51,688 nt of DNA from Candidatus Hodarchaeota archaeon (GTDB lineage Archaea; Asgardarchaeota; Heimdallarchaeia; Hodarchaeales; Hodarchaeaceae): the NCBI GenBank assembly GCA_016839815.1, contig JAEOTM010000137.1, positions 1 through 51,688 of the forward strand, given 5' to 3'. Position 1 is the stretch's first letter, and every line of letters starts with the position of its first letter. Below, one piece after another: positions 1 through 20,800 of the stretch. A program made the translations under genes and the position numbers. The notes under the pieces are model-generated. The model searched no databases and was not told the DNA's origin. It saw nothing but the letters and a program-made list of their open reading frames with translations.

Positions 1-533
1 CCTGTGGGTTCATCTGCAAGAATTATGGTTGGATCATTTGCTAGTGATCTTGCAATAGCCACTCGTTGCTGCTGGCCTCCACTCAATTCTGCTGGTTTAT
101 GATCAAGTCGAGATCCTAGTCCTACAAGACTTAATAGATCTGCTGCTTTCTTCCGTCGTTCTTCTCTTGGAGTCCCAGTGAAAATCATTGGTAATTCCAA
201 ATTCTCAAGAGCGGACAATACAGGCAGTAAGTTGTATGTTTGGAAAATATAGCCGATTTTTCTAGCCCGTAGCCAGGCAAGTTCATAAGCATCTAGTTTT
301 GAGATATCAACTTCATCAATGTAAATTTTTCCATTTTCAGGTTTATCTAATCCACCTATTACGTTAAATAGAGTTGTTTTTCCTGATCCTGAGGGACCCA
401 TTATGGATACGTATTCTCCCCTTTGAACACGCATAGTTACTCCTCGTAATGCTGGAACAGAGATAATTCCACCTTCTAAATAGTATGTCTTTTCAACATC
501 TCTGGTTTCTATTGTATATTCATAAAATGCCAT
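1..533 (-). CDS. ABC transporter ATP-binding protein, LolD/MacB family (3' end runs off the window)
   Basis: Not in the ORF track. Manual translation from ATG at 533: [18 protein letters not shown]...GPSGSGKTT (Walker A)...[10 protein letters not shown] (Q-loop)...[15 protein letters not shown] (signature)...ILADEPTG (Walker B). AGGTGA RBS at 538-543. Confidence 0.95.
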
Positions 534-542
534 AATTTCACC

Positions 543-1151
543 TCAGACCTCGTATCGTAACGCGTCGGCTGGATCGAGCTTAGCACCACGCCATATTGGA
601 TAAAAACTTGCCAGAATACTCGACAATGCTCCAAGAAATATTGATAATAACATAGCTGTAGGTATAAATGATATATCCGCTAATAGAGCATCAATTACTT
701 TATCTATACCAAAACGAATTGTGTAAATTAAACTCCCTGCTACTACTCCAAGGATCGAACCTAAAAATCCTCCAATTAAACCTAAAATCAATGATTCAAT
801 CAGAAACATTTTCAAGATATGATTAAAAGTTCCCCCTAGTGTTTTATATACCCCAATTTCTTTGGTTCTCTCGGTAACTGCCATTAACATCGAGTTTGTG
901 ATCCCCACGAGTGCCACAATCATAGATATCCCTGCCAGCCACCATGTATATTCGGCAATTGTCGAGCTTTCTTTTTCGATATAATTAAGGATCGTAGTCA
1001 TAGTTAAAAGTGCAGTTAAAAACGCAAGTCCGAGAATAATTCCAAACGACGTGATAAGACTTCTTGAGACACGCTTGGTAATATTTTCGATGGAAATCTT
1101 TAAAGCTTCTCTTAGAGGAAATTTACTGGCTGGACGTTTCTTTTTTGGCAT
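543..1151 (-). CDS. Minimal FtsX/MacB-family ABC permease (4 TM, no extracytoplasmic domain)
   Basis: NITKRVSRSLITSFGIILG (TM1), VGITNSMLMAVTERTKEIGVYKTLGG...FLIES, C-terminal YPIWRGAKLDPADALRYE. Start placed at ATG 1151 rather than 1193 to avoid overlap with the upstream gene. Confidence 0.9.
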   Translation of the reverse strand: MPKKKRPASKFPLREALKISIENITKRVSRSLITSFGIILGLAFLTALLTMTTILNYIEKESSTIAEYTWWLAGISMIVALVGITNSMLMAVTERTKEIGVYKTLGGTFNHILKMFLIESLILGLIGGFLGSILGVVAGSLIYTIRFGIDKVIDALLADISFIPTAMLLSIFLGALSSILASFYPIWRGAKLDPADALRYEV

Positions 1152-1171
1152 TTTACACAAACTCCAATATT

Positions 1172-1519
1172 TTATGTGACAAGAGTCTTCCAATCAATTT
1201 TATTTTTGACTATATCTGTCAGTTGAGCCTTTAGAGATATCTCTGCTTGTTTTTCTGTTAATCTAGTAGCGTTCCAAGTCACGAATGGTACATAAAATTC
1301 TGCACGATCAAATTTAATCTGTTTTTTGCCCTGATCTTCAACCTTTTTGAATAAAATAAACCCGAGTTCTCGAAGATAACAAGAATCGTTGGGACATAAG
1401 ATATCAATCTCATTCATTTCCTTTTTTAGGAAGAGAAGCTTATATTCAGCAGTATCAAGTATCTCGCGTCCACATGGGCACTGTATAGTATCTACTTCAG
1501 ATTGATCGGAGCTTTCCAT
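1172..1519 (-). CDS. Small hypothetical protein, probable Zn-ribbon
   Basis: 115 aa with CPCG and CPNDSC Cys pairs; co-directional with the permease and ATPase. Confidence 0.7.
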   Translation of the reverse strand: MESSDQSEVDTIQCPCGREILDTAEYKLLFLKKEMNEIDILCPNDSCYLRELGFILFKKVEDQGKKQIKFDRAEFYVPFVTWNATRLTEKQAEISLKAQLTDIVKNKIDWKTLVT

Positions 1520-1587
1520 ATCCCATCACACGTAATAGTATGTCAGATTAAGATATCATCTATTTTTTGAGTCTTTTTATCTTCTTT

Positions 1588-1603
1588 TTGATAATTTTAT
1601 CAA
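1588..1603. promoter_or_regulatory. 7-2-7 inverted repeat TTGATAA-TT-TTATCAA in a divergent promoter region, putative operator
   Basis: Perfect inverted repeat between divergent starts 1519(-) and 1682(+). AT-rich context makes a chance occurrence possible. Confidence 0.35.
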
Positions 1604-1681
1604 TAATTATAATACACTTATACTTCTGGTTGAAGTAGACAAGAAAAGTATTTAATGGGTCTTTTCTGGTGATATCGCGAA

Positions 1682-2638
1682 ATGGTAAATTCTGGCTGGG
1701 ATAAAATAATATTCGATGTACCTTATGATTGGCAACTAGCAATGAGCCAGAAAGAAACAGAGAAAGATAAAATTAAAGGCATGTTCACTTTCAAGGATCT
1801 AGATCAACTTCTCAGGATGAGTGTTAAATGGGAATCCGTGGTAAAAAAAGTTCCACAACCTCAAGTAATTGTGGATAGTTACTTGAAGAAATTGAAAAAG
1901 AAGTATGCTAAGAATCCAATTTCTATCCGATCACGTAAAAAGATCAAGATCGATGGCCATGATGCTGACTATTTATTATGGGAGAGTAAGAAGAAAAATG
2001 AACTAGCTGCTGTTGTTTCTTGGCTGTGTCCAGAGAGAGAACGGATTTATCTAAGCTTATGGCCGTTTAAAACTAATGAGGTCAAAGAATTAAAGAGTCA
2101 CATTCAACAAGTGATTGACTCAATAAAATGTCATGAATCTTGGGTCACTTGGCGTGGCCCTGGAATCACATTGCATGTACCAGATGAGTTGAAGTTAGTT
2201 GAGACTTCATTTGTTATTGGTACATCTTACATGAAATTTGTAAAGGGTGATACTTCAATTTTAATTGAACGATTTGGTCTCGCACAACAAAATTTAAGAA
2301 AGTATACCTCTATCGTTGATTTCTATAAAGACAAATATGTCCCTAAAATGACCAAAAGAATTAAGGGATTCAATTTTAAGGATCCCAAGCGATATATCTC
2401 ACGAAGAAAATCAATAGAGGAAGTATGGAGGATAAAATCCCAATTACGTATGGGAAAACTCCTTTTGAAACAGAAACTGGTTCTTTTACAATATTTCTGG
2501 GTTGATACAGAAAAAAATGCCATGTTTTTTGCCACTTTACTGGTAGGATCAGTTAATGAAACAATTAGTGATTATTATCCCAAGAGAATTTTTGGTACCA
2601 TTCTTAAACAGCTATTTAAACCTGATATCAAGCCTTGA
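1682..2638 (+). CDS. Lys-rich soluble hypothetical protein, possibly two tandem PsbP/Mog1-like alpha/beta domains
   Basis: 318-aa ORF with no TM or signal. Internal similarity between WDKIIFDVPYDWQL and WRGPGITLHVPDELKL. The fold is a guess. Confidence 0.7.
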   Translation: MVNSGWDKIIFDVPYDWQLAMSQKETEKDKIKGMFTFKDLDQLLRMSVKWESVVKKVPQPQVIVDSYLKKLKKKYAKNPISIRSRKKIKIDGHDADYLLWESKKKNELAAVVSWLCPERERIYLSLWPFKTNEVKELKSHIQQVIDSIKCHESWVTWRGPGITLHVPDELKLVETSFVIGTSYMKFVKGDTSILIERFGLAQQNLRKYTSIVDFYKDKYVPKMTKRIKGFNFKDPKRYISRRKSIEEVWRIKSQLRMGKLLLKQKLVLLQYFWVDTEKNAMFFATLLVGSVNETISDYYPKRIFGTILKQLFKPDIKP

Positions 2639-2872
2639 AGCTTCACTATATATTTCATCTAGAAATCTCTTTTCAAATTACATCTCAACTCTAATTTTTT
2701 TAGTAATACTCGTTTAGAAGAGTGTCGTTATTTCTTTCTCCAAATATGATTATCGTAGTATATTTTCGAGAGCAAAAAATTATAAACTGAATATCATTAA
2801 GCAGTTCTAATATTATCAACAAACTAGGAAACTTCTTTTCCTGTCTTAAGCAACGTCGAGGTGTAATGATAC

Positions 2873-5800
2873 TTGTCCCTGAATAAGAGTTCATTAGCTA
2901 TTGCTGCTTTATTCATTATAATGTTTGCTCTCAGTAGTTTTGAGCAAGTAGAATCTTTGAATCAAGGAATTAATGTTGGAAAATTAAATGATTCAGACAT
3001 CTTTGGTCAAAAAAGAGCAAGACATATACAAGCTTCAAGTACAGATACGAGTGATACATTCGATAGTGTATTGGTTTCTCCAACAAGTAGAAATAATATT
3101 GAGGAACACATCGATGCCCTTACATTCGAAGGTAGAAACTATCAGGGAAGTAGGATTACTGGATATGGAAAAGGATTGGATCAAGCAACATCTGATCCTG
3201 ATGACATGAATGATTATTATGATGCAGTTGCTTACATCAATGAATCATTACATACCCTACCAGGAATGGAAGTAATTTTTCATGAATTTCCAGTTACTGT
3301 AGCAATTGATAGAGGATCGTGGTTGGGTGTTTATGATTCCTCAAATGTAATAGTAGATAATATCACAGTACATGCTTTAGAAACAAATGGGGTGAATCCT
3401 TCTACAGCAGACATACAAGATCGTGATATGTATTATGTTGAAGAGGGACTAGTTAGTTCTTACCCTATGGAAGATGTCAAATCCTCCATAATTGCCATGG
3501 ATATGGACTCGGAAGCTCGTTGGAAAGTAGCGATGAGTTTTGGGGCGGATGCTATTATGTTTATCGAGCCCGAAATCAATATGAGTAAAGGAATTCTTGA
3601 CGATAAATCCACTGGAATTCCATTAAACGTCCCACGAGTAATGATTAAACGAAATGATTGGTTAGGAGTAGAACCACTCCTCGAAACTCATTCTTTCCGA
3701 CTTAAAGTTAATATGCATTGGGAGCAACGAACAGGAATAAATGTACTTGGGGTATTAAATGTAACTCAAAGAATCGATCCTGCTGACCTTGATGCAATAG
3801 AAGAAAGCAAAGTGGGACTTTTATTGTCAAGTCACTTTGATACATGGTCTACTGTTCCTTCTCTAGCTCCGGGCGCAAGTGATGTTGGTGGTATTGCTAC
3901 CTTACTTGAGTTAGCACGAATTTATGCAGTTAAAGCAACTCAAGATAAAGTAAAAAGGAATCTTTTCTTTTTAGCATTATCAGGCCATTATCAATCTCTT
4001 GCAGGGTCAAGAGCGTTCGTTGAAGATTATATATTTGCAAATGATAATATCAAATCTTCCGATCAAGGAACACGTCATCCTCTTGCCGAAGAAATGTGGT
4101 TTGGAGTGAATCTTGATTTAACTGGAGATTATCATATTGCATCTCCGTTCGCTTATGGGTATTACTACTCTCAGTTTCTACCATATCTAACTGCAGCCGT
4201 TAGAAATCCTGCTGATATGGTACGACAAAGATGGGCTGAATTCCTTGGTAATTGGACTACTTTCTCCGCTGATGGAGTCTCAGCTGAAGCTTACGCATTC
4301 CTTACTACAGAACTGCTAAGTTCTACTAGGGGAACCATGGATGCGGATCATTTTCAGGATTATATGACATATTATTATTGGCTTGATTCAGAGCCATTTT
4401 ATGTTAGTGGAACGACCAGCGTAACATTAAAGACCATTTTCTCCGCAAATTTATATAGAGATTCTCCTGATGATGTTCCACTCTCCTATGGTGGGATGAC
4501 ACAGTATTTGGCAAACCTTATTCCTCAGGTAGCCATAGCGAATTATCTCATTGATCAGACTATAGATCAATTTTTCTATGAGGAGATTGACGAAGGTACT
4601 AAAGAACTTAATCAATATTTAGTGCATGAAGCCTATCGACAAGGTGCCCCTTGGGCAGAATTTTCCAAATTATATGGTCGGGTTGTGCTTCATCCACAAG
4701 CAGAGCAAGATACTTTAAATATTAATTCTACTTGGGTTAACACTAATATTTCTAAATCTGAAGGTCGACGTTTCGAACGATCAGTCCTGTCAGGGACAGA
4801 GGGACATTTCTTGGTTCAAGCTGTCCACCAAAGTGGTGTAACTTGGGGTGTCAATGAAATTATTATGGCAGATGACGCCACAGGATTTTTCGATCTTACA
4901 GGTCTTCACAACAATAACATGGGAGGCCTAGCTTCTGGAGGTTCTTACACTATTGCCGTGTATTTTGTATCCACTGATGGACGGGTATTATATGTTACAG
5001 ATTATGGTAATTTTGGCACACCCTCATCTATTACTGTTAATCAAGCAGTGTTAGGCGATCCTCGGTTAAAATCTGCCCATAGACAACCTGGACAGGAAAG
5101 AATTGACTATGCAGTATTCGAATGTGCAAGCCTAGGTGTCTTCAATTTATTAAATAGCCGTAATCTCCTAGATCCACAAAGTGAACTTACTGTAAACCGA
5201 CAAGCTGATAGATTGTCATTTACTCAAGGTTTCAACTTTGACGGAATTGAAGTAGGAAGTGGTGCTCATCCTCAGCGTTATTTTGCTTCTTTTGATGCCT
5301 ATGGAAATGCCATACTTTTTACTCAAGAAAACAAACCAATTCGAATAAGAGTCTTTGTGGGAGGTGGACATCCTGTTGCAGTTCTTACAAACTCTACAGA
5401 AACAAACATCGACGGATTTGGATATCAGTCTAAGGCAGGGATTACTACAATCATTGAGCATGCAATGTTTCAATCAGCTAAAGATTTTTGGTATATTACT
5501 GACAAAAGACTTACCCAGATGAAAGAATTTAATGTTTTTAGTCCTACTGCTGATCAAGCTCATAATCGGGCAACAGACCTAATTTCTGTAGCGGAAGAAG
5601 CGCTAAATGTATTCGATTATGATACTTATTATTCTGCTTGTTTAAATGCGTTCTCCTTAGAAAGAGAAGCATATTCAGCAACTCGCTCTACAATGTTAAG
5701 TGTAATTCAGAGTACTATATTCTTCTTTATATTATTACTGCCTTTTGCATTTATTTTTGAGCGGATGGTCTTTGATTTCAGTGGTCTAAAGCGAATTATT

Positions 5801-7804
5801 GCTTTAGTGGGAATCTTTCTTGCTTTTAATCTTCTAATTTACTTCTTCCAACCAGGGTATCATCTAGCAAGTAATGTAATTATGGTAGGGATAGGTTTCA
5901 TAATGATTGTTCTCAGTGTCCCCGTAGTGATCATATTAGCGAATGATGCTTATACCTACTTACAGGAATTTCGTAAAAAAGTTGTTGGAGAGCATTTTGC
6001 GGAATTTGGTCGAGTTGAGGCTGGACTTGTCTCTTTTGGAGTAGCAGTGTCAAATTTGAGGAAACGTCGATTTTCCACTGCATTAACAATTGCATCTATC
6101 ACACTCATTACATTTAGTTTAGTAAGTTTCGTTTCTGTATCATCTGCTGCGGAATTACAGGCATCTCCAAGTCAAGGAGACTACATTGGGTATAATGGGA
6201 TATTAATGCAGCGAATCGGGGATGGAAGACAGAAATTATCCATCGATCTTGTGGATTATGTTACAGAACGACTTTCAAATGAATTTGAGAATATTACGAT
6301 AACTTCCCGAATCTGGTCTGATCCTCTTCAAGGATCTAATTGGTATATTCTCTCAGAATATGAGGGTAAATTTTCTAAAGGTGACGTTGGAGCATTCCTA
6401 GGTCTTCAACCTCAAGAAAATGAGTTTTTAGATTATAGATCTATCTTAATTGGGGATTGGTTTACTGAAGATTCTTACGAAGAAGTAATCCTACCCACAT
6501 ACATTGCAGGAAAATTAATCTCTGGAAATGTGTCACAATTATTAGGCCAACAGATTCACATACGTGGTGTAGATTTAAAGGTTGTGGGGTTACTGAATAC
6601 ATCTAAAACTATTAGTTCAACCAATAAAACATTTGATCAAATCACACGAACCTTAGATCAAGAGGATGTGTCCCCTATCTCAGATAAGGGGAATCATTTC
6701 AGTCTTGATGAAACTGCGATTATTCCGTTTAAACTTGCTGCAGATAATCCTTGGGGCTCTTATCGAAAGGGAATTTACTTATCACTTGCTCAAATAGCGA
6801 TTAAATTTAATGAGGTTCTCGACTGGGATACTCTCCAAGCTAAAGCGGTTGACTTAAGAAAATCACTACCATCACTAGATATTTATATTGGATTACGAAA
6901 ACCCACCTCTAAAAATCCATTTGCAGGGCAATTTGCTGAATATAGGAAAGGACAATCCTTCCAGCTTATTGGGATTGAGACATTAATCATTCCTGTTATA
7001 ATTGCTGTTTCAGTTGTAGCTGGAACAGTTCTATCGGCTGTCCAACAACAACTTAAAGAAATAAGTGTATATAATGCACTTGGATTATCACCAGAAAATA
7101 TCGGATGGATGTATCTGGCTCAATCTCTCGTGTACGGACTTATGGGTGGAGTTCTTGGCTATTCTTTCGGAATGGTTATTTTAGCATTCTTAGAAGCATT
7201 TTCACTCCTTCCTGCAAGTTTTGTCCCGAATTATACAGGCCTTGCAGTGATTCTAGCTATTGGATTAAGTATTGCCTCGGTTGTTGTCGCTAGCATCTAT
7301 CCTATTAGACAAGCAGTATTGTTTTCATTACCAAGTCATCAACGAAAGTGGGAAATCCCATCAAAACCAGAATTAGATTCATGGAACATACCTTTTCCTT
7401 TTTCAACAGCCTCTTTAGATGAAGCACTAGGTGTTTTACACTACCTATTCGAGTTTTTTGAATCTCACAGAAGTGAAGGAATTGGATCCTTTGCAGTTTT
7501 GGAGGCAAAAATAGATGCCTCTGATAAAAACAAGGTCCAATTCATAGGGAAAATGCGATTAGCTCCTTGGAATTGGGGACTTCTCCAAGAATATAATTTT
7601 CTGACCTACTATGACTCAGAAGAGGAAAAATATCTGTTCGAATTGAGTGTTACAAGAATATCTGGTGATAGAGCTAAGTGGGAAAAAGTTAACGGCCGTA
7701 AATTCTTCAGGGATATTAGAAAACAGCTCTTATTATGGAGAGGATTAGATCTAGATAAGAGAGGTTCTCATATTGAACAAGGTAAGAAACTGGCTAATCT
7801 TTGA
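2873..7804 (+). CDS. Giant membrane protein: signal peptide + PA/M28 peptidase-like domain (degenerate) + beta-rich and helical extracellular region + 3 TM + MacB/FtsX permease + C-terminal soluble domain
   Basis: SSHFDT, APGASD, LLELAR, LFFLALSGHYQSLAGS, VNLD (M28 fold); NLRKRRFSTALT (MacB TM1); LIGDWF...EVILP...VVGLL (MacB periplasmic core); KEISVYNALGLSP and SIYPIRQA (FtsX). TTG start with GAGGTG upstream. Confidence 0.88.
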   Translation: MSLNKSSLAIAALFIIMFALSSFEQVESLNQGINVGKLNDSDIFGQKRARHIQASSTDTSDTFDSVLVSPTSRNNIEEHIDALTFEGRNYQGSRITGYGKGLDQATSDPDDMNDYYDAVAYINESLHTLPGMEVIFHEFPVTVAIDRGSWLGVYDSSNVIVDNITVHALETNGVNPSTADIQDRDMYYVEEGLVSSYPMEDVKSSIIAMDMDSEARWKVAMSFGADAIMFIEPEINMSKGILDDKSTGIPLNVPRVMIKRNDWLGVEPLLETHSFRLKVNMHWEQRTGINVLGVLNVTQRIDPADLDAIEESKVGLLLSSHFDTWSTVPSLAPGASDVGGIATLLELARIYAVKATQDKVKRNLFFLALSGHYQSLAGSRAFVEDYIFANDNIKSSDQGTRHPLAEEMWFGVNLDLTGDYHIASPFAYGYYYSQFLPYLTAAVRNPADMVRQRWAEFLGNWTTFSADGVSAEAYAFLTTELLSSTRGTMDADHFQDYMTYYYWLDSEPFYVSGTTSVTLKTIFSANLYRDSPDDVPLSYGGMTQYLANLIPQVAIANYLIDQTIDQFFYEEIDEGTKELNQYLVHEAYRQGAPWAEFSKLYGRVVLHPQAEQDTLNINSTWVNTNISKSEGRRFERSVLSGTEGHFLVQAVHQSGVTWGVNEIIMADDATGFFDLTGLHNNNMGGLASGGSYTIAVYFVSTDGRVLYVTDYGNFGTPSSITVNQAVLGDPRLKSAHRQPGQERIDYAVFECASLGVFNLLNSRNLLDPQSELTVNRQADRLSFTQGFNFDGIEVGSGAHPQRYFASFDAYGNAILFTQENKPIRIRVFVGGGHPVAVLTNSTETNIDGFGYQSKAGITTIIEHAMFQSAKDFWYITDKRLTQMKEFNVFSPTADQAHNRATDLISVAEEALNVFDYDTYYSACLNAFSLEREAYSATRSTMLSVIQSTIFFFILLLPFAFIFERMVFDFSGLKRIIALVGIFLAFNLLIYFFQPGYHLASNVIMVGIGFIMIVLSVPVVIILANDAYTYLQEFRKKVVGEHFAEFGRVEAGLVSFGVAVSNLRKRRFSTALTIASITLITFSLVSFVSVSSAAELQASPSQGDYIGYNGILMQRIGDGRQKLSIDLVDYVTERLSNEFENITITSRIWSDPLQGSNWYILSEYEGKFSKGDVGAFLGLQPQENEFLDYRSILIGDWFTEDSYEEVILPTYIAGKLISGNVSQLLGQQIHIRGVDLKVVGLLNTSKTISSTNKTFDQITRTLDQEDVSPISDKGNHFSLDETAIIPFKLAADNPWGSYRKGIYLSLAQIAIKFNEVLDWDTLQAKAVDLRKSLPSLDIYIGLRKPTSKNPFAGQFAEYRKGQSFQLIGIETLIIPVIIAVSVVAGTVLSAVQQQLKEISVYNALGLSPENIGWMYLAQSLVYGLMGGVLGYSFGMVILAFLEAFSLLPASFVPNYTGLAVILAIGLSIASVVVASIYPIRQAVLFSLPSHQRKWEIPSKPELDSWNIPFPFSTASLDEALGVLHYLFEFFESHRSEGIGSFAVLEAKIDASDKNKVQFIGKMRLAPWNWGLLQEYNFLTYYDSEEEKYLFELSVTRISGDRAKWEKVNGRKFFRDIRKQLLLWRGLDLDKRGSHIEQGKKLANL

Positions 7805-7826
7805 CTTTAAATAAATGTGAATACTG

Positions 7827-8531
7827 ATGACAACTTCAACAGTTCAACCCCGACATGCACCAGCCATTGTGAAGGCTATAGACGGTCTGGGTTATTTGAA
7901 AACTTGGCATCAGGCTCGAGGATCTTTTTCAATAGGACTGAAAGATCTTCCAGGAAATTTTCTGAATTTACTGGTAATTTCGAAGAAAAAAATTGGATTT
8001 GCGGAAAATTTATGGCATTTTTCCGCAACTTTGCCTATAGTAGACGTTCAAAAAATGACTGAAAACCCAGAACGGGGCATCGCATTATTTCATCGATTGA
8101 AAGGTGAGGAGTGCGTTCTTACATGGAATGGTGTTTTCAATAGAAAGCCTAGCTGGAAGAAAAATCCTCAGCTCAGTGACTTATTTCAAACGTCAGTAAT
8201 CAACCTCCCTACAACCCTGATGAATCGAATTAATGAGTTAGATACCATTGAGGAGCAGATAAGGGAACTAAAACCCGAAAAAATTCTAATCAGTATATCA
8301 GGTGGAGTTATCCCCCCACCCACAGGGGGTGTGAAGAGGGCCTATTATGTTACTAAACAGCGGGAAATTTTTGAAAAACCGCTCGAATGCGCATGGTACA
8401 CTGTTCTTACCCAACAGTTCTATTTAACTCGAAAAATATCTGAAAAATTGGAAAGAATTCTTCTTCTACTAAATAAATTACTTGAAATTCAGAACTTCAT
8501 TACCAATATTACTGTCCAAGAGTTGATGTAA
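7827..8531 (+). CDS. Soluble hypothetical protein
   Basis: 234-aa ORF tightly packed in the operon (22 bp after the previous stop; next gene starts immediately after its TAA). No recognisable motif. Confidence 0.7.
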   Translation: MTTSTVQPRHAPAIVKAIDGLGYLKTWHQARGSFSIGLKDLPGNFLNLLVISKKKIGFAENLWHFSATLPIVDVQKMTENPERGIALFHRLKGEECVLTWNGVFNRKPSWKKNPQLSDLFQTSVINLPTTLMNRINELDTIEEQIRELKPEKILISISGGVIPPPTGGVKRAYYVTKQREIFEKPLECAWYTVLTQQFYLTRKISEKLERILLLLNKLLEIQNFITNITVQELM

Positions 8532-11507
8532 GTGACTACAAATATTATTTCTAAAACGGTTCCGATTGTGGATAAGATCATCGAAAATGGATTCACTTTG
8601 ATATTTGATACTTCATTCTTGATATGGTCGGCGTGTTTTCTGGTTCTAATTGCCTATGGTATTACTCAACTTTTGGAAAATAAAATAAAACACTCCATTT
8701 TACTCAGTCCCCTTAGACTCGTAAAGATTTCTGGACAATTACTTGTCTATTTCACATCGGTAATAGTTATTGCTCTAGTTGCACTTGGTTTTCCATTAGG
8801 ATCATCCTATGCAAGTCATTTACCAGTTATCTCGGACATGATTGAAACTGATCTAGCTGTAAATAGTGGATTGGCTGCAGTAGGAGTGTTACTAGGGATC
8901 ATGGTTGGTTTGTTACCATTTTATTGGATATATCATAGAGAAAATCAAGAAGAGAGTGAATCTAAAGGAAAAACACCTGTTCTCTTGTTTTTTGTAGTCC
9001 TAGCCATCGTGCTTGCTGTCGCGTTCTTCGTATCGTTCTTACTTGAAGAAAATGATCCACCTGTATCATTTCAGATTTTTGAAACAGCTTTTCTATTTTA
9101 TCTCATACTTCTCTTTTCCATCATTGTTTATCCCATTGCTCGAATAGTTGTTAAACTCTTACCTGTTGAAAAGCTGGAATCAGCAGGAATCTCACAGGGA
9201 GCATTAACCATTGCAGTAATTGGAGCTATTGTTGGCCCCTTCATTTCAGTCTTCGTTATGAATATTACATCCTTTGTTATACCACTTCTTGGATTAACAA
9301 CTCCTGATATTTCTGTATGGACTTATAATGGCGAATTTACTCATATCATTGGACCCCTAATTTTATTAGGCGTTTTAATGATTGCACACAAAATAATCCA
9401 TTCCGCAGGTCAGAAAAGAGGGTTGAATTTTAGTGAAATTGGTGTAATATACTCAACTTTATCAATATCCAGCATTTTTGCAATTCTTCCAATGTGGATC
9501 CTTCGATTTTTAGTATTCGAATTTTTCAAAGGAGCAGGGTCAGTTGGGGGATCAACAGGTGCATATATTCCCTCTGTTTGGATTCCAACATGGCCAGAAG
9601 CAATTAATAATATGGTTTTAGGTGGGGAACCAACTTGGGGATATTGGCTTTTACCAATTTTGTTCTGGTCCCTTTATTTCATCTCTTGGGGTATTGTACA
9701 ATTATCCATGAATATTGTCAATCGTCAGCAATGGATAGAAGTAGAAAGACTAAATTTTCCAGTAGCTCAAGCGATTGTTGAATCATTCAAAGCTGGAGAA
9801 ATTGAAGGTTTAGAAGAAAAATCCAGAGTATTCGGTTTTTCTCCATTTTGGATTGGGGGAATCCTCGGTTTCGCGCTATATATCCCGAGGTTACTAGCAG
9901 CCCTCTCTATACGAAATATAATACCTATTGACTTTGCCGTTCCAGAAGTCTTTAATTGGCTTTACTATGACAATATTGAGAATTTAGGGACGGATCTAGC
10001 CACAGGATTATTCGGGGGAAGTGCAAACAGAGTTACTTTAAACATCAACTTCGCATTAATATGGATCGCATTTGCTTTTCTAATTCCAATTGATATTCTA
10101 CTAGGAGCCATAATATGGTATGTAACCTTTTATATAATTCTTCCTCCAGTACAAGTCAGTTTACGGCTTTACGATAATCCCCCTAATCAAGATGTAGGGA
10201 CGAATTATATATTTGTTGGCCATAGAGCGGGTGCTGTGCGAGATATGTTTTCGTTTACGTTGGAAACACTGTTCACACTCTTATTTATTATATGTCTTTT
10301 AATATTCGTAGTTACGCTAATCAGAAATGCCTTTAAATCGAGAAGAAAACCGCTTGGAGATGAATATTTCGTCCCCCAACCTTTTTTAGCAATGACATCA
10401 CGAATGTGGACCTTAGCTATTTTGTTGTTGGTCTTTCTTATTCTTGGTCCCCTAAATTTGGGAGGTGATTATGTCCCACTAAGTGACGAAACGTTTAGTA
10501 TTGGGGGACTATTTCCGCATTTCATATCACGAGGAATGTGGCTTGGCTTTCCACTAGCTTTAATCTATTTCCAGCGGCAATATTTTGCGCAAACGATAAG
10601 GAAAGCCTTAAACAGAACGAAATCGGTTGAAGAAGACGATGACTACCGATTTGCTTATAGCGCAATTATTATTGGAGTACTAGTTCTCATCATCCTAAAC
10701 TTAATGTCAGGAATGGGTGAATTAGCATTTGCCTTCCCAATTTTCTTTATCTTAATTTATTGGACATGGACTCGTGTACGAGCTGAAACAGGATTTATGT
10801 CCTTCTTTATGATGTACGGACCATGGTTACATGAACAAGAGGCTTTACCTTATATCTACTGGCATCTTCAAGGAAATACCAACTCCCAACAAATGTCTAC
10901 TACAGGAATAATGTTTATCTATCTTTCAACAGACAGGGCATTAGGTGCAGCTCCTCAGCCAGCGAGTATGGAGAGTTTCAAGCTTGCTGATATGGCAGGA
11001 GTCCCTCCCCGGCGGTTATACCCACTCCAAATCATGGCAGTTATTTTTGGAGTAGTATTAGTATTTCCCTTAGTGGTTTGGGGAACTTATTACTTTGGAT
11101 GGACAGATTTCAAAGAATTTAGTGAATTTGATTTCGGCCTTTGGGAAGGAGCTGTGGGTTCAAATGTTACTGGAGACAAGATTACTGGACTCCCACCCGA
11201 ATGGCAAGGGTGGATTATGCAATTTTTTGCGGGGATTCCGCTCGCGTTTCTTATTGTTTGGGCCCAACAAACTTTTCTGTGGTTCCCTCTCTCAGTACCA
11301 GCTATAATTTATGGAGATGCCGCAATGACTGGTATGGGATTGTTGGTTCCCAATATAATAGCTTATTTATTAAAATCATTCATTTTTAGATATGGTGGTA
11401 CAAGGATTTATGAAAAGATTGCATTTCCACTAGCTGCAGGCTTTTTCATATTTGGCTTGTCAAGTTTCTGGCTTTCAGAAGGTATAGGACAGCATGCTAG
11501 TTTGTAA
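8532..11507 (+). CDS. Large polytopic membrane protein, OPT-superfamily-like (DUF6785/DUF6784-like) with extra N-terminal TM bundle
   Basis: About 20 or more hydrophobic segments; RQQWIEVERLNFPVAQ, FWIGG, TRVRAETG, FRYGGTRIYEKIAFPLAAGF motifs. Confidence 0.75.
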   Translation: MTTNIISKTVPIVDKIIENGFTLIFDTSFLIWSACFLVLIAYGITQLLENKIKHSILLSPLRLVKISGQLLVYFTSVIVIALVALGFPLGSSYASHLPVISDMIETDLAVNSGLAAVGVLLGIMVGLLPFYWIYHRENQEESESKGKTPVLLFFVVLAIVLAVAFFVSFLLEENDPPVSFQIFETAFLFYLILLFSIIVYPIARIVVKLLPVEKLESAGISQGALTIAVIGAIVGPFISVFVMNITSFVIPLLGLTTPDISVWTYNGEFTHIIGPLILLGVLMIAHKIIHSAGQKRGLNFSEIGVIYSTLSISSIFAILPMWILRFLVFEFFKGAGSVGGSTGAYIPSVWIPTWPEAINNMVLGGEPTWGYWLLPILFWSLYFISWGIVQLSMNIVNRQQWIEVERLNFPVAQAIVESFKAGEIEGLEEKSRVFGFSPFWIGGILGFALYIPRLLAALSIRNIIPIDFAVPEVFNWLYYDNIENLGTDLATGLFGGSANRVTLNINFALIWIAFAFLIPIDILLGAIIWYVTFYIILPPVQVSLRLYDNPPNQDVGTNYIFVGHRAGAVRDMFSFTLETLFTLLFIICLLIFVVTLIRNAFKSRRKPLGDEYFVPQPFLAMTSRMWTLAILLLVFLILGPLNLGGDYVPLSDETFSIGGLFPHFISRGMWLGFPLALIYFQRQYFAQTIRKALNRTKSVEEDDDYRFAYSAIIIGVLVLIILNLMSGMGELAFAFPIFFILIYWTWTRVRAETGFMSFFMMYGPWLHEQEALPYIYWHLQGNTNSQQMSTTGIMFIYLSTDRALGAAPQPASMESFKLADMAGVPPRRLYPLQIMAVIFGVVLVFPLVVWGTYYFGWTDFKEFSEFDFGLWEGAVGSNVTGDKITGLPPEWQGWIMQFFAGIPLAFLIVWAQQTFLWFPLSVPAIIYGDAAMTGMGLLVPNIIAYLLKSFIFRYGGTRIYEKIAFPLAAGFFIFGLSSFWLSEGIGQHASL

Positions 11508-11519
11508 GGAGAATTTATC

Positions 11520-13580
11520 ATGGTAGACAATTCAGAAGTATCATATGATGACGGAACAATTCAATTAGATTCCCCTGATCTCGATGATAGCGGAGTTGAT
11601 TCAGGAGAGGAAGAATTACTCCCTGTCTTTCGTGAAAAACCTGAATGGAAATCAGGAGCTAGCTGGCGAGTTGGTCTTGCAATAATTTATGGGACAATTG
11701 TACTTCAACCAGCAGCAATCTGGCTGTCTTGGACAGTAGGACTTCAACCATGGCAGCTAGTTTCCTCATTCGAGTATACGGCTATTATTCTTTTTTCCAC
11801 ATTGGCTGCTAGATCGGGTAAAAATCTAAGTCGTCAGGAAGCTTTCGTCCTTTTTTCAAATGTCGGAACTACAATTGTTGAATCCATAGCAGCGAATTTC
11901 ATCTTCTTTTACTACCTGTCAAGAAAATCTCCCGCAGCAATTACATATGGATTTGACGCAGGAGGTAGCAATCCTGCACCGAATTGGTTTGCACCACTAG
12001 AAATTGTAGGTCGGACTTTCCTAGATGCTGCTTGGATACCTTCCATTCTACTCTGGATCATTGTTTTTGGTGTTTTAGTTAAATTAGTAGATCTGTCAGT
12101 TGGATTTATCACATATCAACTTTTTGTCGTCGAGGAACGCCTTCCGTTCCCAGGCGCACAGGTTTGGGCTAACGCATGTGTTGCAATATCTGAAAAAGCA
12201 AAAATGCCTCGTAAAAGTCGTATTCTAGTATATAGTTCAATGATTGGAATTGGTTTTTCACTCGTAGTTCATAGTACATGGATTCTGTTTGGTAGACCAA
12301 TTTTAATTAATCCATGGATTGATGCTACTGGAAGTTTAGAAACTTTTGGATTTGAAGGCGCGAGCTTTGGGATTTTGCTTGATCTAATCCTTTTCGCAGG
12401 GGGATTTGTTATGCCATTCAAAATGGTTGCATCGATTTTTATTGGAGGTCTTATTGCATATACAATTGGAGGGGCCTTAATTCGAAATGATTTTGCTGGT
12501 CTTGGATATCTCTATCCATGGAGTCCAGGGGGTCAATATGGTCTCAGTGAAGTTTTTGAAACGCTATTGTTACGAGTTTGGGTTTCACCTATTATTGGGT
12601 TTGCTGTTGCTGCAGGGATGGTTCCAATAATTCGAAATCGGCATACAATTTGGGCTGGCATCAAAAAAATAAGAGATATTCGTGATATACAAGAGCGAAG
12701 GGATATGATTCCTTTATGGTTAATAATGTCAATGTTCTTAGGAGGAACGCTTGGCTCAGTTATCATTACAGTCATTCTTGTACCAGAATTATTACCTTTG
12801 ATCTGGTTATTACTATTGCTATCTGTAGTGTGGACATTTTTCTTCAACATAATAAATGCAAGAATTATAGGAGAATCTTGGGTCGGTTTAAGTATTCCTT
12901 ATGTAGCTCAAGGATCGTATTACGCGGTTGGATACACAGGTTATAAAGCGTTTTTTGCACCCCTTCTTGTTGGCGGTGCTGGTGGTCCTGGTCATGGTGG
13001 TATAGCTCCTGGAGGATATGGATGGGCATCTGTATTCAAAGCATGCCGTATGACTGAAACTGACATTAGATCTTATCTAAAAATATATTTCTTCGCATTT
13101 CCACTGACAATGTTAGTATCATTTGTATGGGTTCAAGCATTTTGGCAATTTTCTGACATCCCCTCCTCATTATTTAATTACACTGCAGAATTCTGGCCAG
13201 TAAACGCTCAAGCTGCATTAATATGGCCAGCAGAAAATTTACCTGACGTAGAAGGACTTGGATATGAGCTATTCCACTTAGATTGGATGGCATTAGCGTT
13301 TATTGGTGGTTTTATTCTAACTTGGACTTTCTCAGCTTTTGCCATACCATTTGAAATGGTAGGATTAACTATAGGTCTTTCCCAACCAATTCTATTTAGT
13401 TCTATTGCATTCTTGGGAGCGCTTTTTGGTAAATTAATGGAACGAATGAGAGGTAAGGAATGGTGGCAAGAAAATCGAAATGTAATTGCTGCTGGTTTTG
13501 GTCTTGGTGAAGGATTAACGATTGCAATTGTTGCTGCGATCGCTCTTATCTCACGTGCCATGTGGATTTGGCCAATCTAG
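11520..13580 (+). CDS. OPT/YSL oligopeptide-transporter-like membrane protein
   Basis: Acidic N-terminus, SWRVGLAIIYG, LSRQEAFV, VEERLPFPGAQ, AAGFGLGEGL; many TM segments; AGGAGA RBS. Confidence 0.8.
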   Translation: MVDNSEVSYDDGTIQLDSPDLDDSGVDSGEEELLPVFREKPEWKSGASWRVGLAIIYGTIVLQPAAIWLSWTVGLQPWQLVSSFEYTAIILFSTLAARSGKNLSRQEAFVLFSNVGTTIVESIAANFIFFYYLSRKSPAAITYGFDAGGSNPAPNWFAPLEIVGRTFLDAAWIPSILLWIIVFGVLVKLVDLSVGFITYQLFVVEERLPFPGAQVWANACVAISEKAKMPRKSRILVYSSMIGIGFSLVVHSTWILFGRPILINPWIDATGSLETFGFEGASFGILLDLILFAGGFVMPFKMVASIFIGGLIAYTIGGALIRNDFAGLGYLYPWSPGGQYGLSEVFETLLLRVWVSPIIGFAVAAGMVPIIRNRHTIWAGIKKIRDIRDIQERRDMIPLWLIMSMFLGGTLGSVIITVILVPELLPLIWLLLLLSVVWTFFFNIINARIIGESWVGLSIPYVAQGSYYAVGYTGYKAFFAPLLVGGAGGPGHGGIAPGGYGWASVFKACRMTETDIRSYLKIYFFAFPLTMLVSFVWVQAFWQFSDIPSSLFNYTAEFWPVNAQAALIWPAENLPDVEGLGYELFHLDWMALAFIGGFILTWTFSAFAIPFEMVGLTIGLSQPILFSSIAFLGALFGKLMERMRGKEWWQENRNVIAAGFGLGEGLTIAIVAAIALISRAMWIWPI

Positions 13581-14812
13581 GTGAATTCCGAATTGCAGTC
13601 AGAACTCGAAAGTTTTTTCGATTCTGACTCTCCCCAGAAAGCAAATCTCAGAATTTTACTATACATATATCCACAACTAATTGCCATCGGAATTTCAAAC
13701 ATCGTCAAATACTGAGGCCATTTTGTTTGCCATAATACTAAGAAAGCTATGTTCACAAAGTAAAATACAATAATTGAAGTATATTTTACCGACAATTCCT
13801 TTGTTTCCTTATTGTATGCTGCGGATGCCAAGAAAGCAAGTCCAAAAATTGACCCAATAAACAATATCCCGTCCAAGTACACAATAGGAAAATGTTCATG
13901 CCATATTGTCGGATTGGTTTCTCCTAGTAACCAATCAAACTGTTTGAATGGATCTGGGTCCATTGCTTCCTCTCCCTGAGAATAATCGTAATGAAAGAAT
14001 ATTGACTGGATAAACTCTGTAGGACTGTTCATTGTTCTCGGATTAAAGATACAGAATGATACCGTAAAGATAACTCCCCAGAGAAGAATCTTCTGGACAA
14101 ATTTCTTATTTACGAATTGATTCAACTGAAGCTTTGATTTTGATAAGAAGCCAGCAGATCTAGGAGTATCCTCTTCTTCATCTAAAAAGGCCATTAGTAA
14201 GAAAACTGTACCTCCAACTAATAAGCCTGGATATTTCGCTGCAAACGCTGCTGCGGAGAAGATAGCACTTAGATTCCACCATTTATCACCTGTTTTCCTT
14301 ATATAATACAACATTATCAATGCTAATAAAGCAAAGAATGATAAACTTGCTTCTAGGTATGCTTGAGCTGTATATTTAATTGAATAACTTGAAATTGCCC
14401 AGAATAAAGCTGGAAATAGTCCGAATTCCTTCCAAAGTAGAATACTTATGCCAGTTGCTAGAATAATTGAGATAAATCTTGCAGCCATTAAATTATCCAT
14501 GTCAAAAATCGTTCCTTCCCCAAACAATAGAATCCCTAATCCCATGAGGATTTTCCCAAAAGTAGGATGTTCAGGATTTTCCTCCTCAGTTATTATTTCA
14601 GCCCAGTCCCATTCTCTAATAGCTTCTGCATACGTCTCAGCAATTGGAACATATACCATTTCATCAAAATCACGGTCAGAATATGGATTATCTAAATACA
14701 TCGTATTAGCAGCTTGAAATCTCAGAGAAAAGGTCAGTATGATAATAAAACTTAGTGATAAAATGCTAATAATCAGTGGGGAGTATTTCTGTACTTCTAC
14801 TTGGAAACCCAT
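13577..14812 (-). CDS. GT-C fold glycosyltransferase (GT39/PMT-ArnT-like)
   Basis: DFDEMVY acidic motif after TM1, NPEHPTFGK, AARF, AAKYPG, multiple TM helices, KWPQY. Confidence 0.8.
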   Translation of the reverse strand: MGFQVEVQKYSPLIISILSLSFIIILTFSLRFQAANTMYLDNPYSDRDFDEMVYVPIAETYAEAIREWDWAEIITEEENPEHPTFGKILMGLGILLFGEGTIFDMDNLMAARFISIILATGISILLWKEFGLFPALFWAISSYSIKYTAQAYLEASLSFFALLALIMLYYIRKTGDKWWNLSAIFSAAAFAAKYPGLLVGGTVFLLMAFLDEEEDTPRSAGFLSKSKLQLNQFVNKKFVQKILLWGVIFTVSFCIFNPRTMNSPTEFIQSIFFHYDYSQGEEAMDPDPFKQFDWLLGETNPTIWHEHFPIVYLDGILFIGSIFGLAFLASAAYNKETKELSVKYTSIIVFYFVNIAFLVLWQTKWPQYLTMFEIPMAISCGYMYSKILRFAFWGESESKKLSSSDCNSEFT

Positions 14813-14896
14813 TTACATTCAATTCGTTATTTTCTTGAAAATAAATAAATTTGTTGTATACTTTTGATTTGATTATTCATTTAGGAGGTACACCTC

Positions 14897-17836: not shown

Positions 17837-20800
17837 TCTTGTCTTCTTCGACGGTAAGAGACGTAAACAAGTATTATCGCTGATAAACTTATCCAAAATG
17901 GGATAGGGCTATCCTGACTTGTTGTTGTGGTTGTTGTAGTCGTAGTTGTAGTTGTTGGTAGAAGTGAGGTAGTTGTAGTTGTGCTTACAGGGGGAAAACC
18001 TGTTATCTCGATGATATGGATGGAAGACATTCCTTCGTTACCAAAAGTATCAATGGCTTTTGCATAAACATATACTTGGGGTACAGTAAATGGTCCCATT
18101 ATCGCTGCATACGTTTCTGATGCAGTAAATGACATCGACTTCTCGGTATAAGTTACACCTTCATCTGTACTTATATATAATACAGCTGAAGATATTCCTG
18201 AATGATCAGTGGCATTTGCTACAATGGTAATTCGAGCATCTTTATCCAGTTCACTAGGCACGTCAAGAAGTTCAACAACTGGGGCTAGTGTATCTATCAC
18301 TGTACTATCAATCTCTGTACTGAATAATGTTGTATCTTTAAATGTGAATGATAGAGTCAGTGTCGATTGTCCTCCTGCAAGACCCTGTAGTGGAATGATG
18401 AAAATATTATTTCCAGGATCAAGCTGTAAATACCCACTCCATGATCTAATAAGATTACCTTCGACTTTTAAGAGACCATACAGACTATAGGATTCTATAT
18501 TATCAATAGAGATCGGAATAAGAATTGGTCCTTCAACATTGATACCGCTTATCGTTGAAGTTAGTAGTAGCGGAAGAGATGAAGGCTCAGCTGTTGAAAA
18601 GGATCTGTGAATTATGAAGGGAGTTTCTAGTTCGTGAGCATCAACAATAAATGTGAGATTATCTGTTGACAAAAATCCAGTAATATTAACAACAAACACT
18701 ACTTGCCTAGGAGTGAAAGGTTGTAGATCCCCTAAATTAACACTAGAGGTGATTATTTCCAATCCTGAATGGGGAAGGAAGGTAATAGTTGTATTGGAAG
18801 CTTTTACATCGGCGATGTTGGTTAGTGTCATTTCAAATTGAGTGGTACTATTAGGCATGAGATCTACGGGGTATTGAAGGAGTCCAGCTTGGATTGAAGG
18901 GAGCTCAACAGTAACACTAACAAACTGCTCTTTATGAAGTACTCCATCAACATAAACACGAATAACCACTGTATAATCAGTACTTTGAGCAGAACTCTTG
19001 GCACTGATATTCCATGCAACAGAATTTACTGAAAATGGTTCTAAATCACCCATATTGTACACAACGGATCCTTGCAAAAGCTCAAGGTCAGCTGGTAAAA
19101 TAAGTTCAAGTTGAACTGCTTTAGCTGTGAGATTTCCACGTGATTCTACTGAAAGTGTGAGATTTTTCGAAGAGGTTTTTGAGATAGATCCGAGATCTAT
19201 CGTCCGATTCTCCACCAAATTGATATTCTTTAGATTCAGAATCGAAGAATCTTGTGAATTTCCTTCTACAAATGCCTGCCAAGAGCTTCGAGGTTCATTA
19301 AGAGTTATCAGTGAGTGATTTATTGAAGAAGTTATGGCATCAATATACATGATCATTCGAGCTGTAAATTGCCAATCATCACCAATTTGTTGATCTGTAC
19401 CTGCCCACCAGAACGCATCACTGCCCTCAGCAATCGTAATATATTTCCAAAATGTTTCCTGTTCTTCAGGAGTGAGTTCTGATTCAAATTGTTCTAAAAG
19501 CTCCCGACCTTCCATGATGTATTTCCATAAAAGATTTTCATCGGGTTCTCCATACCAAGTAGAAACAGATCCATCAACCCATGATCCTCCTCCATACGGA
19601 AGGGGAAATTCCTTAGGATAAGAGAAGTCATCTGTAGTAAGCGTTTTACTAGGAGGTACATAATGCATGGCTTCTTCTAGAGTTGCGGTTTGTACCCAAC
19701 CAAGCATTTGTGATTCTTCCAAAGCAGCATAGACGCGATCAGAAAAGTATCTTGCAGCGGGAGATCCCCAAATCATATAATTCTCGCCATCGAGAGCAAC
19801 AGTTACGACTTTATCAAGATCCTCACTAACCACGTGATTTTTGTACATATTCACAATTTGACCCATAAAATCTCGTGCTGCATCTTCCGCAGAAGCATAT
19901 CCATTATATCGAAAACCAATGTCATTAGAAATAGGCGTATATCTGAAGAATGCCACCATTTGTTTACCAGTGACCTCATCAAGCACTAAATATGGTTCGA
20001 AGGGTTTATTTCCACCACCAAGATTCGCATCAGACCAAATGGTATGATTGATACCATTATCTACCCAGTAAGGTATAATTTGTGTATTAAAACTCATTTC
20101 AGGCTGCCATGCACCGTAAGGTGTGTAATCAAATAGGTTAGCTGTCACATTTTTTCCTAACACGATCTGACGAGTCATATCTTCATCCCAACCCCAATTT
20201 GCTAACAAAGCGAAAATCGGATGATTATACCCACTGGTAAGTAACTGTAATTTACCAGATCGAGAGGTATTATGTAGTACATCATAATGAAGATCAATAG
20301 TTTGATTAATGTTATCAACCCAATCCATTGTCCATTCCCCATTATTTGACCATCCGTTACGAGAAGCAAGCCACTGTTCAAGTAGACTAGGTTGAAGGTT
20401 GATTGTAGCTGAAATATTAGGATGATTAGCTAGTGCTTGAATTTGCCATAGATAAGGTCCTTCTGTATGAGCCTGAGCCCATGGTTCTAAGAAATTCGGA
20501 GGATTGGTAAATGGTTCTGTGTAAAACGGCTGATGTTGATGCCAAACAAAAGAAAGATAGAGTTTTTTGCTAGTAAGGGTAGTATCAACCACATTTAAAT
20601 TAATTGTTTTTTCAAACACTAATTCAAAGGCTTCTTCAACTTCAACCTTTATATTATAAACCCCCAATTCTTGCCCATGGGTGAAAACGTGGGTCAAGGT
20701 AATATTTCCATCTCCAGGAACAGTTTCACTAGACCATTGCCAGATCTGGGTTGTTTCCAAATATAATCTAACAGTAACATCCTTGGAAACATTATTGACA

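Follow-up and report, generated by a model that had tools for sequence, protein, structure and literature searches.

The window analysed here, that is, the whole stretch of 51,688 nucleotides (nt) of contig JAEOTM010000137.1 from a Candidatus Hodarchaeota archaeon (assembly GCA_016839815.1), begins with a group of genes at positions 1 to 13580 that encode an ATP-binding cassette (ABC) ATPase, two FtsX-type subunits of very unequal size, two permeases of the OPT superfamily and accessory proteins. The larger FtsX-type subunit, of 1643 amino acids (aa) and referred to below as the giant, carries an extracytoplasmic head with a peptidase fold. We describe the composition of this locus, the folds of its proteins, the loss of the peptidase site in the head and the conserved linkage of the genes. 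The reading that we favour, and that we regard as evenly poised between right and wrong, is that the locus encodes one composite membrane system for the ATP-assisted uptake of oligomers; the complex, the direction of transport and the substrate are what we infer. The parts of the locus all come from known superfamilies; no characterised system is known to unite a MacB/FtsX motor with permeases of OPT fold, with a receptor of dead PA/M28 type and with a PqqD-fold protein.

Gene content of the locus and its continuation on a second contig

The source assembly is a 4.2-Mb metagenome-assembled genome (MAG), 89.5% complete and with 7.8% contamination; the annotations of close homologues (Promethearchaeota, Hodarchaeales and Kariarchaeaceae) place it among the Asgard archaea. 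The gene content of positions 1-13580 was taken from a listing of open reading frames (ORFs) and from Pfam matches at curated cut-offs. The window start is a contig end, and the original prediction had cautioned that further genes may be cut off there. This is indeed so, and the missing genes are on another contig of the same assembly, C60. The reverse complement of the C60 start shares 23 nt with the window start (window 1-23 = C60:1-23), the assembly has no second copy of this 23-nt word, and the reading frame of the ATPase is continuous over the join. The join falls where the ATPase gene encodes its conserved Walker B region, and the assembly break there probably results from similar words among several paralogous ATPase genes. 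Positions 1-13580 are the larger part of a locus of ~13 genes that extends onto C60 and has the following features:

3-533, minus strand: ABC ATPase 'a', first 177 residues, truncated by the contig end (Pfam ABC_tran, 122 bits)
C60:1-219: remainder of ABC ATPase 'a', for a joined total of ~242 aa
543-1193, minus strand: minimal FtsX subunit, 216 aa, four transmembrane helices (TMs) (Pfam FtsX, PF02687, 71 bits against a cut-off of 25.5)
1172-1519, minus strand: g3, a 115-aa cytoplasmic accessory protein, with a 22-nt overlap with the small FtsX gene
1520-1681, no strand: AT-rich divergent intergenic region of 162 nt, read directly
1682-2638, plus strand: g4, a 318-aa cytoplasmic accessory protein without TMs
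2873-7804, plus strand: the giant, a 1643-aa FtsX-type subunit with eight TMs (Pfam, TM map, AlphaFold2 (AF2) models)
7827-8531, plus strand: g6, a 234-aa cytoplasmic accessory protein; its stop codon abuts the start of the DUF6785 gene
8532-11507, plus strand: DUF6785/DUF6784-type permease of the OPT superfamily, 991 aa (matches to Pfam DUF6785 at 110 bits and to DUF6784)
11520-13580, plus strand: 686-aa divergent OPT-family permease (Pfam OPT, 48.7 bits; cut-off, 25.8)
C60: second ABC ATPase, 248 aa
C60: 1010-aa FtsX protein, the third FtsX protein of the locus
C60, outside the window: PqqD-like protein (PF05402, 40.9 bits against a cut-off of 23.4)
C60: DUF2116 zinc-finger protein with a TM tail

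All eight genes of the original prediction, in two divergent units, are present as ORFs, although the second ATPase, the third FtsX protein, the PqqD-like protein and the DUF2116 protein were absent from its list. Its description of the units as tightly packed holds for most of their length (gaps of 9, -22, 22, 0 and 12 nt) but not ahead of the giant, where 234 nt intervene. The divergent region at 1520-1681 presumably carries the promoters of both units, and an Rfam scan of positions 1-15000 returned no RNA family. An orthologous locus, 66% identical, lies on a 238-kb contig, and its gene order is identical to that of the window joined to C60: DUF2116, PqqD-like and FtsX-991; then ABC, ABC, small FtsX and a 116-aa protein; then a 318-aa protein, the giant, a 235-aa protein, DUF6785 and OPT. 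Beyond the DUF2116 gene, C60 encodes two large proteins of 493 and 1220 aa without a family match (L097:4909-10027), which are matched in size and position by proteins of 504 and 1199 aa in the orthologous locus.

Folds and homologies of the motor, the head and the permeases

The giant matches the Pfam families Peptidase_M28 (PF04389, 43 bits), MacB_PCD (PF12704, 31.4 bits against a cut-off of 27) and FtsX (PF02687, 45 bits). Its hydropathy map comprises a signal anchor at residues 2-20, an ectodomain at 21-943, three TMs at 944-1021, FtsX TM1 at 1071-1089, a core ectodomain at 1090-1371, TM2-4 at 1372-1475 and a cytoplasmic tail at 1476-1643, and the same eight-TM plan is found in the 1010-aa protein of C60 and in one bacterial giant. 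The stored gene call starts the giant at the ATG at 2921, with which the signal anchor is lost; the TTG at 2873, with GGTG ahead of it, yields a proper N-terminal hydrophobic anchor. The family of the giant numbers 1249 cluster representatives (50% identity, E value of 1e-3 or better), nearly all of 1450-1550 aa. In the window's copy the chain is divided as follows:

3053-4618, plus strand: extracytoplasmic head of PA and M28 fold, catalytically degenerate (AF2 model, VIA, Foldseek)
4655-5935, plus strand: extracytoplasmic domain rich in beta strands, a long helical stalk and three additional TM helices (AF2 at high pLDDT, TM map)
6083-7297, plus strand: MacB-type module consisting of FtsX TM1, the periplasmic core domain and TM2-4 (Pfam, Foldseek, VIA)
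7298-7801, plus strand: C-terminal cytoplasmic alpha+beta domain of ~165 aa, conserved

The head was modelled by AF2 from 102 sequences (pLDDT 86.3, pTM 0.89), and the model superimposes on the Aeromonas aminopeptidase 1rtq with a VIA Z score of 26.1 and a root-mean-square deviation (rmsd) of 2.8 over 270 residues, and on the transferrin receptor with a Z score of 25.6; Foldseek matches at E values of ~1e-17 include 2ek8, TfR1, PaAP and GCPII. The head shares the two-domain fold of the PA+M28 proteins (2ek8, PaAP, BSAP, the transferrin receptor and GCPII; Z of ~25) but is fused here to an ABC permease. M28 metallopeptidases are defined by co-catalytic zinc ligands and a catalytic Glu (His, Asp, Glu-Glu, Asp, His), and this set is not retained in the head: the Glu-Glu pair is replaced by His-Tyr, the last His ligand is gone and the first His is variable across the family. 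The metal site is degenerate in all 20 of the giants aligned, in agreement with the earlier description of the head as a pseudo-peptidase. The metal site of the transferrin receptor is likewise not conserved, and this analogy suggests that the head of the giant may have a binding role. We also weighed a special link to eukaryotic nicastrin or nicalin and discarded it: the PF05450 match, at 17.6 bits, stays under the cut-off of 25, the family also occurs widely beyond the Asgard archaea, and the best structural matches of the head are bacterial aminopeptidases and the transferrin receptor rather than nicastrin.

No fold was assigned to the beta-rich domain and the stalk, which were barely tested because the M28 part filled the match lists. 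The C-terminal half of the giant, on the other hand, was modelled with a pLDDT of 90.1 and has MacB as its top Foldseek match (E value of 1.7e-11), together with LolCDE, YtrEF, HrtBA, YbbAP and BceAB; its core domain superimposes on the MacB periplasmic domain 3ftj with a VIA Z score of 13.8 and an rmsd of 3.0 over 187 residues. The cytoplasmic tail is kept in a paralogue (37% identity) and in the bacterial giant (24%, E value of 2e-13), and its weak structural matches to helix-grip, START and KA1-like folds (Z of 7.5-8.8) are a lead rather than an assignment.

Both ATPases have intact Walker A, Q-loop, LSGGQ, Walker B-Glu and H-switch motifs, and they fall into two orthologous groups that are both also represented in the paralogous loci and in one bacterial locus. 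The small FtsX subunit has a canonical coupling segment and only ~18 residues between TM1 and TM2, as follows from the TM map and from an alignment across archaea and bacteria; it therefore lacks an ectodomain, as had been expected of this 'minimal' FtsX. Taken together, the locus has the four-TM FtsX domain, a core domain between TM1 and TM2 (in the giant, not in the small subunit) and intact cognate ATPases in cis, which are the hallmarks of type VII ABC systems such as MacB of MacAB-TolC, LolCDE, FtsEX, HrtBA, YtrEF and YbbAP, and it shares with them the separate MacB-type ATPases and the coupling segment. It differs in that its three FtsX subunits are very unequal in size, one of them being without an ectodomain, in that it has two distinct ATPases, and in that the large subunits are extended by a signal anchor, another large ectodomain, three further TMs and a tail in the cytoplasm. 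A genomic pairing with OPT-fold permeases and a PqqD-like companion are found here as well, and we know of no characterised type VII system with such partners.

The combination of an ectodomain-less and an ectodomain-bearing FtsX unit with extra TM helices in between recalls BceB, and BceAB is among the fold matches. BceB is, however, a single chain of ten TMs that works with a homodimeric ATPase and a partner kinase, whereas here the four and eight TMs are encoded by separate genes and the ATPases are two paralogues. The likeness raises the question of whether the asymmetric FtsX/ATPase unit is a sensor that, in the manner of BceAB-BceS, reports substrate flux and regulates the catabolic genes nearby. 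We consider this very unlikely: the 10-TM permease and kinase that characterise the BceAB class are missing, neither a histidine kinase nor any other signalling partner is conserved in the loci examined, and the presence of several receptor and permease sets with one motor in some genomes (see below) does not suit one sensor per pathway.

The two permeases appear from sequence comparison to be paralogues within the OPT superfamily, homologous over their full length, since the profiles of the OPT-type family and the DUF6785 family align over ~580 columns (hhalign probability of 99.7%, E value of 1e-26); this agrees with their original designation as OPT-like transporters. Compared with the OPT/Yellow-Stripe-like family (TC 2.A.67, PF03169), of which the 686-aa protein passes the Pfam model, both are very divergent and are encoded as a fixed heteropair beside an ABC motor; the Pfam OPT model is passed by 6 of the 16 members of the OPT-type family. 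Sequence and profile searches of the PDB with both permease families found no solved chain. Prokaryotic OPT members are uncharacterised, and the review of the family mentions no link to ABC proteins (PMC3061005). The DUF6785 protein has an N-terminal extension (8532-9430) of ~300 residues and ~8 TMs that is absent from the canonical members of 650-730 aa and matches weakly, below the cut-off, the NCBIfam entry for MAB_1171c putative transporters (28.7 bits). No giant-permease fusion was found among the stored proteins searched, which included the 150 best representatives of the giant.

Conservation of gene linkage in archaea and bacteria

The DUF6785-type permease, the giant and the OPT-type permease constitute what we call the trio. 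The same MAG contains two further loci of this kind. Locus B, on contig C85, has OPT-type, giant and DUF6785 genes, then ABC, ABC, small FtsX and g3-like genes, and then g4-like, PqqD-like and g6-like genes; locus C, on contig C101, has ABC, ABC, small FtsX and g3-like genes followed by those of an OPT protein and a 579-aa FtsX protein. A search of species genomes with the DUF6785 alignment gave 350 loci, and among the best 80 of these, which were inspected, the trio is adjacent in Hodarchaeales, Bathyarchaeia, Thermoproteota, Brockarchaeota, Thermofilaceae and Gemmatimonadota. On one bacterial contig ABC, DUF6785, giant, OPT-like, small FtsX and ABC genes are consecutive. No DUF6785 gene was found in 14 control genomes, and in a sample of 201 Asgard genomes the small FtsX is limited to the genus of the window (its own genome plus 7 of 10), where in five genomes it lies ~5 kb from a DUF6785 gene.

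The pairing of the giant with the OPT-type permease is particularly strict. In 12 related Bathyarchaeia genomes, 17 of the 18 OPT-type genes abut a giant, usually at 12-250 nt and on the same strand, and the eighteenth is at a contig end. In three genomes mapped as a whole, every match to an M28-bearing giant whose neighbours are visible on the contig falls in a trio; a 1.4-Mb Bathyarchaeia MAG has five or six trios, and a 1.8-Mb Bathyarchaeia MAG and a 5-Mb Gemmatimonadaceae genome have two each. The pairwise distances among the three trio proteins are correlated over 18 trios (r of 0.94-0.95), which is consistent with inheritance of the trio as a unit, with a contribution of shared species ancestry.

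In all 12 Bathyarchaeia genomes the type of small FtsX gene found at the locus is present in exactly one copy, with zero to six giants, and in two genomes examined this gene lies among housekeeping genes, in one with an adjacent ATPase gene and in the other alone. A single strong PqqD-like gene is present in each of five genomes; it is unlinked in Bathyarchaeia and adjoins a trio in the Gemmatimonadaceae genome. Blocks of PqqD-like, small FtsX and ABC genes occur in Chthonomonadaceae, where a g4-like gene is added, and in Phycisphaerales. Since the small FtsX and the PqqD-like genes are single-copy and unlinked while the trios are multi-copy, a shared motor is suggested, and it appears from the copy numbers that in Bathyarchaeia a single motor serves several receptor/permease trios; in the source genome each locus has its own motor. 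The neighbourhood comparison proposed with the original prediction thus reveals that the components are kept together far beyond the source genome, in archaea and in bacteria. The prediction was to be abandoned if homologues of the components proved unlinked elsewhere, and here the outcome is divided: the giant is practically always linked to the OPT-type permease, but the ATPase/small FtsX motor is unlinked in Bathyarchaeia and DUF6785 is often solo. An unlinked motor fits a shared motor better than no connection at all, and it does not fit one fixed eight-gene operon.

The accessory genes follow the locus to various extents. The g3 protein has a zinc-ribbon-like motif with four Cys, and both paralogous loci (44-53% identity) as well as the orthologue have a homologue at the corresponding place. 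Homologues of g4 are encoded in locus B (25% identity), in the orthologue and on the Chthonomonadaceae contig beside the PqqD-like, small FtsX and ABC genes (E value of 1.8e-11). The g6 orthologue is 49% identical, and distant homologues of g6 adjoin trios in other archaeal phyla, often beside a gene of a B12-binding radical SAM protein. None of g3, g4 and g6 matches a Pfam family or is named by NCBIfam, and atlas look-ups with g4 (318 aa) and g6 (234 aa) returned unnamed clusters only, those of g4 being archaeal and bacterial. The B12-binding radical SAM protein, whose nearest NCBIfam entry is TIGR04190 of unknown function, recurs beside trios in four archaeal lineages, mostly by a g6-like gene (L011:14112-15584, L031:7546-9021, L046:8313-9809, L028:10955-12235), and is absent from the window.

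The PqqD-like protein brings up a machine of the opposite direction, one for export or envelope biogenesis, in which this protein would bind a peptide in the cytoplasm, or the cargo would be lipid-linked, the OPT-fold permeases would flip the cargo or let it through to the outside, and the motor would extract or release it at the surface, in the way that LolCDE acts on lipoproteins or MacB on peptides. The PqqD-like protein is a fixed single-copy companion, the B12-radical SAM genes recur beside trios as just described, the characterised type VII systems are all known to expel or extract, and the weak START/helix-grip-like matches of the giant's tail can be added on the same side. The PqqD domain is present, as in the recognition elements of RiPPs (peptides that are made on ribosomes and modified after translation), but neither a precursor peptide nor a maturase gene is present in the locus or its orthologue, for which reason a RiPP export cluster was given low weight. 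In addition, no characterised OPT-family member is known to export, and five or six copies in a 1.4-Mb genome with changing catabolic neighbours look like nutrient acquisition. We hold the export machine to be improbable.

Flanking genes, possible cargo and proposed mechanism

Clues to the substrate come from the genes around the different copies. Three GH57 paralogues directly follow the locus in the window, one at 14897-17836 and two detected as tblastn matches at 19393-21645 and 23667-25508, and after the orthologous locus come genes of the glucodextranase type and of GH57. Locus B has a GH2 gene at its flank. In locus C there are six TldD/PmbA genes and two genes of stand-alone PA-M28 peptidases, which retain every catalytic residue; it resembles a version of the giant arrangement in which the parts are unfused and enzymatically active, and it is built around peptides. 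This locus lies within C101:5000-24999, has its own motor of ABC, ABC, small FtsX and g3, and its 579-aa FtsX protein bears the MacB core domain. Elsewhere the trios have GH31, GH38, GH57, GFO/IDH/MocA, TrmB and TIGR04190-like B12-radical SAM genes as neighbours, and other copies adjoin genes of clostripain or U32 peptidases. The many copies per small genome, the changing catabolic neighbours and the polymer-degrading character of the carriers point to nutrient acquisition.

In the uptake system that we favour, the motor would be a type VII ABC transporter of the MacB/FtsX class, with two different intact ATPases, the minimal FtsX and a large eight-TM FtsX. The large partner may be either the giant or its 1010-aa relative on C60, and the motor would in this way be split and asymmetric, reminiscent of BceB. 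The non-catalytic PA+M28 head would bind, outside the cell, an oligomer freed by surface hydrolases, and an ATP-driven movement transmitted through the FtsX stalk would hand the oligomer to the OPT pair, or gate this pair, which would carry it across the membrane. The PqqD-like protein, as a putative peptide-binding protein, would act with g3, g4 and g6 as the cytoplasmic accessories. From gene linkage we infer both that all of these proteins form a single physical complex and that the substrate passes from the head to the OPT pair. The cargo of the window's copy may be fragments of alpha-glucan, because three GH57 genes directly follow it.

The same machine may instead carry peptides in the window's copy, with the dead aminopeptidase head gripping peptide N-termini and feeding them to the OPT pair. 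The M28 aminopeptidase fold of the head, the name and the known substrates of the OPT family and the copies next to clostripain or U32 peptidase genes all favour peptides, as does locus C, where the same motor and an OPT protein are joined to two intact PA-M28 peptidases and six TldD/PmbA proteins. The window's copy and its orthologue nevertheless adjoin GH57 and glucodextranase-type genes, and the metal ligands that shape the aminopeptidase pocket are lost from the head, so that for this copy we judge a peptide cargo to be a poor bet.

A number of observations weigh against uptake by a composite system. To our knowledge, no known type VII ABC system imports, and characterised OPT proteins need no ATPase. 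The flanking genes, from which the substrate is deduced, differ between copies; the PqqD-like protein and the recurrent B12-radical SAM neighbour suggest the handling or modification of peptides over the uptake of sugars. In the remaining 59 of the best 80 DUF6785 loci (Armatimonadota, Poribacteria, Latescibacterota and others) DUF6785 genes occur alone or in tandem with no giant, and in both the 1.8-Mb Bathyarchaeia MAG and the Gemmatimonadaceae genome the two trios are accompanied by ~20 solo DUF6785 genes. As DUF6785 is mostly solo, the permease fold must therefore be able to function without the machine. Finally, two Bathyarchaeia genomes have the small FtsX and no giant. As to the solo genes themselves, ~20 paralogues per genome are remarkably many for a membrane family that has not been characterised, and no theme dominates among the immediate neighbours of the 59 solo loci, where TPR, GFO/IDH/MocA and DUF1559 genes were each found in a few cases.

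Several of these observations would be explained if the locus joined two independent, co-regulated systems, namely, a type VII mechanotransducer doing extracytoplasmic work and a separate proton-driven importer formed by the OPT-fold pair, with the head holding, releasing or remodelling surface-bound polymer or surface enzymes. DUF6785, mostly solo and hugely expanded, would then work alone; the motor is unlinked from the trios in Bathyarchaeia; and characterised OPT proteins are secondary carriers (PMC3061005). What speaks for a connection is the position of the OPT-type paralogue beside the giant in 17 of 18 cases at a short distance on the same strand, and the gene order kept from archaea to bacteria; this pairing is stricter than co-regulation usually gives. 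We think it unlikely, if still worthy of serious attention, that the two halves of the locus work separately.

If the composite uptake system is real, it may represent a new primary-active class, in which a type VII mechanotransducer, dedicated or shared by many modules, powers OPT-fold permeases through a pseudo-peptidase receptor, as an equivalent, in the cytoplasmic membrane, of the SusCD/TonB systems for the utilisation of polymers. The PqqD-fold adaptor would in this case recognise a peptide segment of the receptors' conserved cytoplasmic tails and so dock the motor onto receptor modules that are interchangeable. We put this forward tentatively and would not be surprised to see it fail. 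Group II ECF transporters and TonB-ExbBD with SusCD similarly have one energiser and several substrate modules in catabolic loci, a likeness that is one of analogy and not of homology; it is based on copy numbers, and the source genome has one motor per locus.

The original prediction named no characterised system of this composition, and full-text literature searches likewise found no paper that describes one, nor any paper about DUF6785/DUF6784 or any that connects FtsX with OPT, M28 or PqqD within a system of this kind. The module is nevertheless common, as the 1249 clusters of the giant indicate, and occurs in multiple copies in archaea and bacteria that degrade polymers and are uncultured (Bathyarchaeia, Thermoproteota, Brockarchaeota, Hodarchaeales, Gemmatimonadota). 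Should it serve for uptake, it would supply a missing piece in our picture of how these heterotrophs of sediments and hot springs take in the products of digestion, would be the first case of import by a type VII ABC motor, and would give a function to prokaryotic OPT proteins and to DUF6785/DUF6784. The locus described here encodes the motor, receptor, permeases and accessories together and so provides a defined gene set, whereas most carriers have the motor elsewhere.

Two further observations concern the surroundings of giants and permeases in the source genome. A 1253-aa giant-like protein with M28 and FtsX parts is encoded on contig C36 (L016:7076-10837) next to the gene of a clostripain (C11); the 18 kb of C36 that were inspected yielded no OPT-like gene. 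In the window, the gene of a 411-aa membrane protein with a weak PMT_2 match (13577-14812) is convergent with the OPT gene and overlaps its stop by 4 nt, and the homologue of this protein in the orthologous locus has 714 aa and a Glucodextran_C domain.

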